Shown here in pieces: positions 11,286 to 11,764 of a DNA stretch of 64,000 nt; positions within the stretch are counted from its first letter, which is position 1, and the number at the start of each line of letters is the position of its first letter. The notes beneath the pieces are model-generated. The model was not told the origin of the DNA. It worked only from the letters and a program-made list of their open reading frames with translations, and did not search any database. The translations under genes and the position numbers were made by a program. The stretch is taken from the sequence record PV733668.1; one strand, written 5' to 3'. This DNA comes from Pseudomonas phage NCVTCBPA170.

Positions 11286-11314
11286 TTTTGATTCCTCCTT
11301 GAGATTGAGAGTAC

Positions 11315-11343
11315 ACTATACCACCATCTGAAGCAGAAGTCAA
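11315..11343 (-). promoter_or_regulatory. sigma70-like promoter for the left arm
   Basis: minus strand: TTGACT, 17 nt spacer, TATAGT. Confidence 0.5.
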
Positions 11344-11346
11344 GGC

Positions 11347-11375
11347 TTGACAAGCTAAAGAATTTATAGTAATAT
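11347..11375 (+). promoter_or_regulatory. sigma70-like promoter for the right arm
   Basis: TTGACA, 17 nt, TAATAT; its -35 lies back to back with the minus-strand -35 (GTCAAGGCTTGAC). Confidence 0.45.
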
Positions 11376-11400
11376 TATTAAATATATTATATATAATATA

Positions 11401-11434
11401 CAAGGGAGGGAGTGGGCAAGTGCCCCCTCCCTTG
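11401..11434. repeat. perfect 10-bp inverted repeat (CAAGGGAGGG..CCCTCCCTTG) inside the AT-rich island
   Basis: seen directly; 14-nt loop; flanked by TATATAAT-type AT runs. Confidence 0.6.
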
Positions 11435-11477
11435 TACTAAGTATATAATTAATATTAATTACTATAGGTTAATTTTT

Positions 11478-11654
11478 ATGAGATGTAAAGGCTGTAATAG
11501 GATAATTAAGTATCCTAGTAAGAATTCAGTATCAGGTAAGCATGAAGACCTCTGCTCCCTGTGTCAAGGCCGTGCCAAGATGGTAGGCCCTACTGAGAAC
11601 TACGCATTCCCTCATGCGAAGCAGGGCTTGACACCAGTCCGTCAATGTGACTAG
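11478..11654 (+). CDS. small zinc-ribbon protein, 58 aa
   Basis: CKGCNR...CSLCQGR; AT-rich codon usage unlike the rest of the genome. Confidence 0.3.
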   Translation: MRCKGCNRIIKYPSKNSVSGKHEDLCSLCQGRAKMVGPTENYAFPHAKQGLTPVRQCD

Positions 11655-11657
11655 GGA

Positions 11658-11699
11658 TTGACAAACACACCTACAGGATGCTATAGTATCTATAGATAC
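11658..11699 (+). promoter_or_regulatory. promoter with an overlapping 14-bp palindromic operator
   Basis: TTGACA, 18 nt, TATAGT; perfect palindrome GTATCTATAGATAC at 11686..11699 overlaps the -10. Confidence 0.5.
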
Positions 11700-11764
11700 A
11701 CCAGTTTAAGACCTGGGAGGGTTCCTCCTCCTTCCCCTCTCAGGCACCCAACCAAGGAGTAAGT

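Follow-up and report, generated by a model that had tools for sequence, protein, structure and literature searches.

The 64,000-nt stretch of Pseudomonas phage NCVTCBPA170 DNA analysed here (PV733668.1; hereafter the window) carries, at positions 11286-11764, a divergent control region at the junction of two gene arms. We interpret this region as a group of three sigma-70 promoters, termed P069, P070 and P071, in which the transcript from P070 begins with a long stem-loop that may act at the RNA level, and in which a perfect 14-bp palindrome overlapping P071 is probably incidental. We place the probability of this combined interpretation at about 0.6. The window derives from a Nankokuvirus, that is, a PAK_P3/KPP10-type phage of Pseudomonas aeruginosa, and members of this genus, PAK_P3 and KPP10 among them, are candidates for use in phage therapy.

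Three promoters at the junction of two gene arms

Positions 9000-14000 of the window match 40 records at 90-99% identity, and the 650 nt around the control region share 99.8% identity with KPP10 and 99.5% with PAK_P3. Window positions up to 11301 are converted to PAK_P3 coordinates by adding 72,940, and later positions by adding 72,939; the offset changes at a 1-bp insertion or deletion, the window having a single additional base relative to PAK_P3 inside the 5′ untranslated region (UTR) of gp159. The control region is the junction of a DNA-metabolism arm on the left and a late packaging and structural arm on the right. This division follows from RNA-seq values in PAK_P3, where log2(late/early) is +1.24 for gp159, −0.18 (not significant) for gp160, +2.61 for gp161 and +4.63 for gp162 (Chevallereau et al. 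2016, S5 table).

Transcript mapping by ONT-cappable-seq in PAK_P3 identifies P069, P070 and P071, all of which were classed as sigma-70 promoters (Putzeys et al. 2024, microLife 5:uqae002, Table S3; bioRxiv 10.1101/2023.10.13.562163 supplement); the promoters whose activity was tested in that study were P033, P034, P064, P067 and P075. By locating the published upstream 50-mers in the window, we derived start sites at 11308 on the minus strand for P069 (PAK_P3 84247), at 11382 on the plus strand for P070 (PAK_P3 84321) and at 11694 on the plus strand for P071 (PAK_P3 84633). The 50-mers of P069 and P071 match the window exactly, and that of P070, as printed in the table, departs from it at a single base (TATTTAA versus TATTAAA). 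Each of the three start sites lies 7 nt downstream of its −10 box, the mapping having been done in the 99.5%-identical PAK_P3.

The leftward promoter P069 (11315-11343, minus strand) pairs TTGACT (11343-11338) with TATAGT (11320-11315) across a 17-nt spacer, and matches 10 of 12 consensus positions with an added TG extension (TGgTATAGT). Facing away from it, P070 (11347-11375, plus strand) has TTGACA at 11347-11352 and TAATAT at 11370-11375, also separated by 17 nt and also with 10 of 12 matches. The second rightward promoter, P071 (11658-11687, plus strand), consists of TTGACA at 11658-11663, an 18-nt spacer and TATAGT at 11682-11687, with 11 of 12 matches and a TG extension (TGcTATAGT). A consensus scan ranks P071 as the best-scoring promoter. 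The same scan returned 14 sigma-70-like matches in 15 kb, compared with 6.9 ± 3.3 expected, and half of these (7/14) cluster within the approximately 370 nt from 11315 to 11687.

A first-pass annotation, made from the letters of the window, had proposed these three promoters at these places, and the published start sites bear it out in each case. Its leftward promoter corresponds to the mapped P069, unlike the minus-strand “putative promoter_15” of the GenBank records for PAK_P3 (KC862299/NC_022970), which lies at about 11386-11419 and is not the mapped leftward promoter. In the same records “putative promoter_14” and “putative promoter_16” are P070 and P071, respectively. The annotation had also described the −35 boxes of P069 and P070 as lying 4 bp apart inside a near-palindrome. 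This layout is correct, but the gap between the hexamers is 3 bp (GGC), and GTCAAGGCTTGAC is a perfect 13-bp odd palindrome. Back-to-back −35 boxes are likewise found in Otagovirus (4 bp apart), in the phage Roomu-2 (5 bp) and in Pakpunavirus (22 bp).

We regard the existence of the three promoters and their start sites as virtually certain, given the published mapping. The three-promoter divergent junction is already on record for PAK_P3, and our findings add little to the promoters themselves. In PAK_P3, transcription units TU112/113 run from P069 through gp159-gp158, TU114 runs from P070 through gp160-gp162 and sRNA1, and TU116/117 start at P071 with gp161 as their first gene (Putzeys et al. 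2024). In the mechanism we favor, host sigma-70 RNA polymerase would initiate all three transcripts at the junction, with P069 directing transcription to the left, into the DNA-metabolism arm with gp159-gp158, P070 directing it rightward into the zinc-ribbon gene gp160 and further, and P071 directing it rightward into the late arm of DUF5681, terminase and tRNA genes. Because the −35 hexamers of P069 and P070 are just 3 bp apart, simultaneous occupancy by two polymerases is probably impossible.

A stem-loop leader on the P070 transcript

Immediately downstream of P070 lies a perfect, GC-rich hairpin (11399-11436, plus strand) with 12-bp arms TACAAGGGAGGG (11399-11410) and CCCTCCCTTGTA (11425-11436) and a 14-nt loop, which spans +18 to +55 of the transcript. 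The first-pass annotation had recognized this hairpin and its loop, but had given the stem as 10 bp, whereas the perfect stem is 12 bp long. No perfect stem in the window is longer, and chance would yield approximately 0.07 stems of 12 bp or more in 64 kb. A-U pairs lengthen the stem to 11386-11449, for a total of approximately 30 pairs.

The first ~76 nt of the P070 transcript are predicted to fold into a single long stem-loop with a free energy of −34.1 kcal/mol (z = −3.4). To put this value in context, the leaders of 48 mapped PAK_P3 start sites that could be placed on the sequence in hand were ranked, and the P070 leader (96 nt, 31% GC) comes first of the 48 both by minimum free energy and by z score (−7.95, the next being −3.07). 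The first paired nucleotide falls at +1 to +5, with minimum free energies of −31 to −34 kcal/mol, and the structure thus qualifies as a 5′-terminal stem-loop.

These observations suggest, tentatively and at somewhat less than even odds, that the hairpin acts at the RNA level as the 5′-terminal leader structure of the gp160 mRNA. The hairpin and its A-U extension would make up the initial ~76 nt of the P070 mRNA, and the terminal stem-loop would then shield the gp160 message against 5′-end-dependent decay, or tune that message. Single-stranded, AU-rich RNA 3′ of the hairpin may help ribosomes to initiate at a weak Shine-Dalgarno sequence.

The hairpin has no credible counterpart among the Rfam families. 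A search of positions 11000-13800 with Rfam 15 recovered only tRNAs and sub-threshold noise, and over the hairpin itself gave just a spurious match to MIR7994 (23 bits, the gathering score being 100). When the hairpin arms were searched for in IMG/VR as CAAGGGAGGG-N8-20-CCCTCCCTTG, 17 matches were obtained, of which 16 are unrelated terminator-like hairpins with other loops and one is the Nankokuvirus Ab03. Since the matches other than Ab03 are unrelated, the hairpin module is specific to the genus and is not a mobile element.

Conservation within the genus is of little help in judging function. Between positions 1200 and 15200 the window and PAK_P5 diverge by 6.3% on average, yet these 14 kb include 15 or more runs of 155-1022 nt that are free of differences. 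This mosaic divergence between two Nankokuvirus lineages, as read from their alignment, indicates frequent recombination, and the mosaic of identical blocks makes short conserved blocks and within-genus identity uninformative about selection. We had considered the 150-nt block at 11361-11510, which is invariant between the window and the PAK_P5 clade, as a trace of purifying selection, and rejected this explanation given that the genomes are mosaic with many identical runs.

A structured RNA in the equivalent position of sister genera

Pakpunavirus, Otagovirus and Pseudomonas putida phages share a common gene order at this locus: a gp159 homologue, back-to-back promoters, a zinc-ribbon open reading frame (ORF), a promoter, a DUF5681 gene and tRNAs. 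In these phages, approximately 330-390 nt that are conserved across the genera replace the 96-nt hairpin leader. Within them we find a structured RNA of approximately 300 nt, flanked by the rightward divergent promoter on one side and by the zinc-ribbon ORF on the other (minus strand in each case; positions 1558-1900 of the PAK_P4 locus L006, 1490-1889 of the phiPsa374 locus L007 and 1486-1885 of the Roomu-2 locus L008). Like the hairpin of the window, it begins near +1 of the rightward member of the back-to-back promoters.

Covariation supports the predicted fold. RNAalifold proposes 56 pairs, of which 21 show compensatory changes. For an 87-pair structure with 18 predicted helices, 91.9% of cells are paired, compared with 35-43% when partners are slid, and changes on both sides occur in 32 pairs, compared with 3-5 when slid; the observed values were reached in none of 500 shuffles. 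An additional 21 IMG/VR loci (L036-L056) carry the invariant GAGAGATATGTC...CACTCACCGGCC signature, some of them in other gene contexts. Rfam 15 finds nothing over the structured leader in the sister-genus loci. This RNA is undescribed and is the most interesting observation of our analysis, though it lies outside the window.

The structured RNA was not found in Nankokuvirus when the window and the rest of the PAK_P3 genome were searched using nhmmer --max (E > 2). We therefore rejected the idea that the hairpin of the window is a remnant of the sister-genus RNA, as the two have no sequence similarity by this method. The 76-nt hairpin and the ~300-nt RNA occupy an equivalent slot, after the rightward promoter and before the zinc-ribbon ORF, while being non-homologous. 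The presence of a structured, covarying RNA in the equivalent slot of three sister lineages mildly favors an RNA-level function for the P070 leader position. A bolder proposal, which we consider unlikely though worth stating, is that the hairpin leader has taken the place of the ~300-nt RNA as a minimal, non-homologous substitute, and that both are cis-regulatory RNAs controlling the virion-packaged, putatively nucleoid-associated protein (NAP)-like Gp160, for example through Gp160 feedback or the sensing of host state. If this proposal were true, the slot that separates the zinc-ribbon gene from the divergent promoter would be a point at which phage RNA regulators are swapped as modules.

The AT-rich tract as a candidate replication origin

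The hairpin is embedded in an AT-rich tract (11353-11477) with 25.6% GC overall and 11.8% GC over the 93 nt that remain without the hairpin core, and the tract as a whole forms an imperfect palindrome of approximately 100 bp. The first-pass annotation had singled this region out as the only strongly AT-rich stretch of the window, and the lowest-GC 100-nt interval of the whole genome is indeed located here (0.22, with the next lowest at 0.34, a mean of 0.549 and a standard deviation of 0.046), an AT bias well outside what chance would give. Within the tract are the inverted repeats I1-I4 and I21, as well as perfect A/T palindromes at 11383-11400 and 11446-11461.

These features raise the possibility, for which the first-pass annotation had also allowed, that phage replication starts at this AT-rich imperfect palindrome downstream of P070, with transcription from P070 opening the duplex or leaving an R-loop primer and with forks departing in both directions, co-oriented with the gene arms. 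As the sole strongly AT-rich segment of the 88-kb genome, and with hairpin flanks of such low GC content, the tract has the composition of an AT-rich unwinding element. The strong promoter P070 fires straight into it, and the gene arms diverge from it. The cumulative GC-skew minimum of the window, at 10921, is approximately 450 nt away; however, the switch in GC skew coincides with the switch in coding strand, and the two are confounded. The element sits at 84.3 kb of the 88.1-kb record, 3.8 kb from the record end, which would fit an origin if the published coverage peaks at the record ends, but the published Hi-C coverage skew is ambiguously worded and has a resolution of 1 kb.

Other observations argue against an origin at this site. 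No DnaA box within one mismatch is present between 9.2 and 14 kb of the window (the closest one lies at 9106), and no iteron-like direct repeats were found near the tract, where the sole repeat family is the shared −35 context. The sister genera, despite the same gene order, have the structured RNA at this position and not an AT-rich tract. For PaP1, moreover, GC skew was used to put the origin at the genome end. We know of no origin that has been mapped in the PAK_P3/KPP10 phage group. The AT-rich tract, the GC-skew minimum and the published coverage skew are compatible with an origin, and none of them is specific for one. On balance we consider an origin at this site unlikely, with perhaps one chance in several of being correct, and such a role is compatible with an RNA-level role of the hairpin.

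The palindrome over P071

The perfect 14-bp palindrome GTATCTATAGATAC (11686-11699) spans −8 to +6 of P071 and overlaps its −10 box, as the first-pass annotation had pointed out. That annotation had gone on to propose a genetic switch with the palindrome as the operator of a dimeric repressor. Our results do not sustain this proposal. The window contains four perfect palindromes of at least 14 bp, compared with 3.4 ± 1.9 expected. Three of the four fall in the control region, but two of these three are pure A/T sequences of low complexity. With the count at chance level, GTATCTATAGATAC is by itself no signal.

The site is also solitary. The first-pass annotation had recommended counting copies of the palindrome, and no copy within three mismatches, nor any half-site, occurs elsewhere in the 64-kb window or in the other 25.5 kb of the genome, where the closest match differs at four positions. 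It had further named the loss of the palindrome and the hairpin from close relatives with the same gene order as an outcome that would speak against a regulatory site, and for the palindrome this is what we see. At the homologous promoter before the DUF5681 gene in Pakpunavirus, Otagovirus and the P. putida phage (PAK_P4, phiPsa374 and Roomu-2), inspection by eye reveals no dyad over the −10 box or start site, and the sequence is not conserved. Even within the genus, the PAK_P5/Ab (Ab11) clade has GTGTCTATAGATAT, in which positions 3 and 14 are altered, such that two symmetric pairs are broken and neither is compensated. This amounts to changes at 2 of 14 positions, compared with a background divergence of approximately 6%.

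How the palindrome might have arisen is suggested by its composition. Copies of CTATAG begin at 11681 and 11690, and the region of GTATCTATAGATAC is a tandem CTATAG(T/A)(A/T) repeat of −10-like sequence. These two overlapping, self-complementary copies suggest that the palindrome stems from a duplicated −10-like motif. We judge it probable, with greater assurance than we attach to the combined interpretation, that the palindrome is incidental and not a repressor operator. If so, a futile hunt for the corresponding repressor is spared.

A dimeric repressor of phage or host origin that blocks P071 early, and whose block is relieved late, would nevertheless have its operator where this dyad sits, over −8 to +6 of a mapped start site. 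The genes downstream of P071 are expressed late (log2 fold changes of +2.6 to +4.6) while the upstream gp160 is flat, although template amplification can account for the late rise of gp161 and gp162. Dyads around the −10 box are found at further PAK_P3 promoters too, but these differ from GTATCTATAGATAC in sequence (GGCC type) and in position (centered near −13). A candidate repressor is also hard to find. Searches of gp158-gp162 against Pfam and PHROGs returned families of unknown function only, with no helix-turn-helix or other DNA-binding domain in the neighboring proteins, and Gp160 is just a predicted DNA binder. Taken with the chance frequency, the single copy, the broken symmetry and the lack of a dyad in three other genera, these points make the operator improbable, and more so than the origin.

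The dyads at other promoters are a separate observation. At several mapped PAK_P3 sigma-70 promoters (P066, at window positions 7492-7514, as well as P051, P045, P039, P033 and P053), the −10 box lies within or is overlapped by a GC-rich inverted repeat, examples being GGAGGCCAG-GCATA-CTGGCCTCC and GGCCATTCT-GT-AGAATGGCC. Perfect arms of at least 5 bp occur at 13 of 66 promoters, compared with 7.6 ± 2.6 in shuffled sequences, and at six promoters the arms reach 7-9 bp. This recurring GGCC-type promoter dyad is a better candidate for an operator than the unique GTATCTATAGATAC.

The least probable of the alternatives, to which we give very little weight, takes the hairpin as an attenuator or terminator, either a promoter-proximal stop for P070 transcription that requires read-through, as at lambda PR′-tR′, or a terminator of leftward antisense transcription that insulates the two arms: the 12-bp stem is GC-rich, sigma-dependent pausing could be induced by several −10-like hexamers of the initially transcribed region (TATAAT, TATATT), the minus strand has a T-rich run after the stem (TATATTAT...) and a minus-strand promoter-like site at 11489-11461 could yield a short antisense RNA ending at the hairpin, but the plus-strand tail after the stem (UACUAAGU) lacks a U-tract, a terminator scan made no call at the hairpin, no PAK_P3 termination site is mapped between T038 (83691) and T039 (85458), TU114 reads through the hairpin on its way from P070, and no minus-strand start site is reported between P069 and 84633 in PAK_P3.

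Several considerations weigh against our preferred interpretation, that of a promoter junction with an RNA-level leader hairpin and an incidental palindrome. The mRNA-stabilizing role proposed for the hairpin is deduced from a predicted fold, and a perfect Watson-Crick stem cannot tell one strand from the other, nor RNA from DNA. A stabilizer hairpin needs neither flanks of 12% GC nor a palindromic layout of approximately 100 bp, and hence a DNA-level role, as an origin, a cruciform or a binding site for an H-NS-like protein, may coexist with it. Conservation of the hairpin within the genus does not discriminate among these possibilities, as identical blocks of 150-1000 nt are common between the window and PAK_P5. 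Since ONT-cappable-seq captures short RNAs poorly, transcripts ending prematurely at the hairpin may have escaped it. Finally, gp161 and gp162 rise 6- to 25-fold late in infection and gp160 does not; P071 may therefore be regulated by something, perhaps a unique operator.

Genes flanking and inside the junction

The first gene of the leftward DNA-metabolism arm is the gp159 homologue (10719-11285, minus strand), which encodes a 188-residue protein of PHROG 12276, a family of unknown function. Homologues occupy the equivalent position in Pakpunavirus, Otagovirus and P. putida phages. In gp159 and these homologues, the C-terminal third is a low-complexity tail rich in Lys, Pro, Glu and Ala, with a conserved EKPARKxRxKK motif and an appearance reminiscent of histone H1. 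The 5′ UTR of the gp159 mRNA is 23 nt long (11286-11308, minus strand), extends from the P069 start site and includes an AAGGAGG Shine-Dalgarno sequence; fold prediction gives no significant structure for it.

The small zinc-ribbon ORF that the first-pass annotation had placed at 11478-11654 (plus strand) is gp160. Its product is a basic protein of 58 residues with a CxxC-x19-CxxC arrangement, and four genera share the ORF start and the two CxxC pairs. A Pfam search with gp160 gave no match, and the protein falls in PHROG 23358 and 10364, both of unknown function. Gp160 (YP_008857795.1) has been described as a virion-associated, basic protein that is predicted to bind DNA and is not temporally regulated, and has been proposed to be a NAP-like factor (Bignaud et al., Sci Adv 2026).

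The records of vB_PaeM_RP7 and RP15 depict this segment differently. They list an 80-residue version of gp160 with a GTG start (11412-11654), which begins within the hairpin loop, and a 34-residue ORF (11658-11762) that takes the TTG in the −35 box of P071 as its start. Both are probably mis-annotations, to judge from the comparison of coding sequences and start sites: the ATG at 11478 is backed by the cross-genus conservation of gp160, and the P071 start site falls within the 34-residue ORF.

The packaging and structural arm opens with the late gene gp161 (11765-12121, plus strand), which encodes a DUF5681 protein (Pfam PF18932, E = 3.8e-7) and whose homologue comes after the small ORF in every genus compared. 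The gp161 5′ UTR (11694-11764, plus strand) comprises 71 nt from the start site to the ATG, is pyrimidine-rich and has an AAGGAG Shine-Dalgarno sequence. Its pyrimidine-rich segment at 11710-11760 reads UUCCUCCUCCUUCCCCUC, and a comparable run, UUCCUCCUCCUUUC, is present in the homologous leader of phiPsa374. The pyrimidine-rich run could pair with the AAGGAG Shine-Dalgarno sequence, although the predicted fold of the 5′ UTR is no better than that of shuffled sequences (z = +0.5).

Farther into the right arm, at 13755-14579, lies a Walker-A ORF that is named “terminase large subunit” in relatives. The protein has just 273-274 residues, which is short for that subunit, and the gene may be split or interrupted.

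Comparison with known systems

The arrangement of P069 and P070 resembles that of PR/PRM in phage lambda and of bioA/bioB in Escherichia coli, in that outward-facing promoters have abutting −35 regions and mutual hindrance is expected. The lambda and bio promoters are controlled by repeated operators that are bound by a dedicated repressor. The junction described here differs from both, as neither a repeated site in the genome nor a repressor gene among the neighboring proteins was found.

Transcription-activated origins are known from T7, where the primary origin combines promoters 1.1A/B with an AT-rich region, from oriF and oriG of T4, and from ColE1, where RNA II is involved. Like these, P070 directs transcription into an AT-rich unwinding element, and does so where the gene arms and the GC skew change direction. 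Unlike them, the tract is devoid of initiator sites such as DnaA boxes and iterons, and it is not conserved in the sister genera.

For the RNA-level role that we favor for the hairpin, the closest parallel is the 5′ UTR of E. coli ompA, in which a hairpin protects the mRNA against 5′-end-dependent decay by RNase E. The P070 leader differs in being much longer, with approximately 30 pairs including the A-U pairs, and in being set in a DNA tract of 12% GC. The likeness is one of predicted fold, and in this respect the two leaders are laid out in the same way, with a stable hairpin a few nucleotides from +1 and, after it, a ribosome-binding region that is AU-rich and single-stranded.

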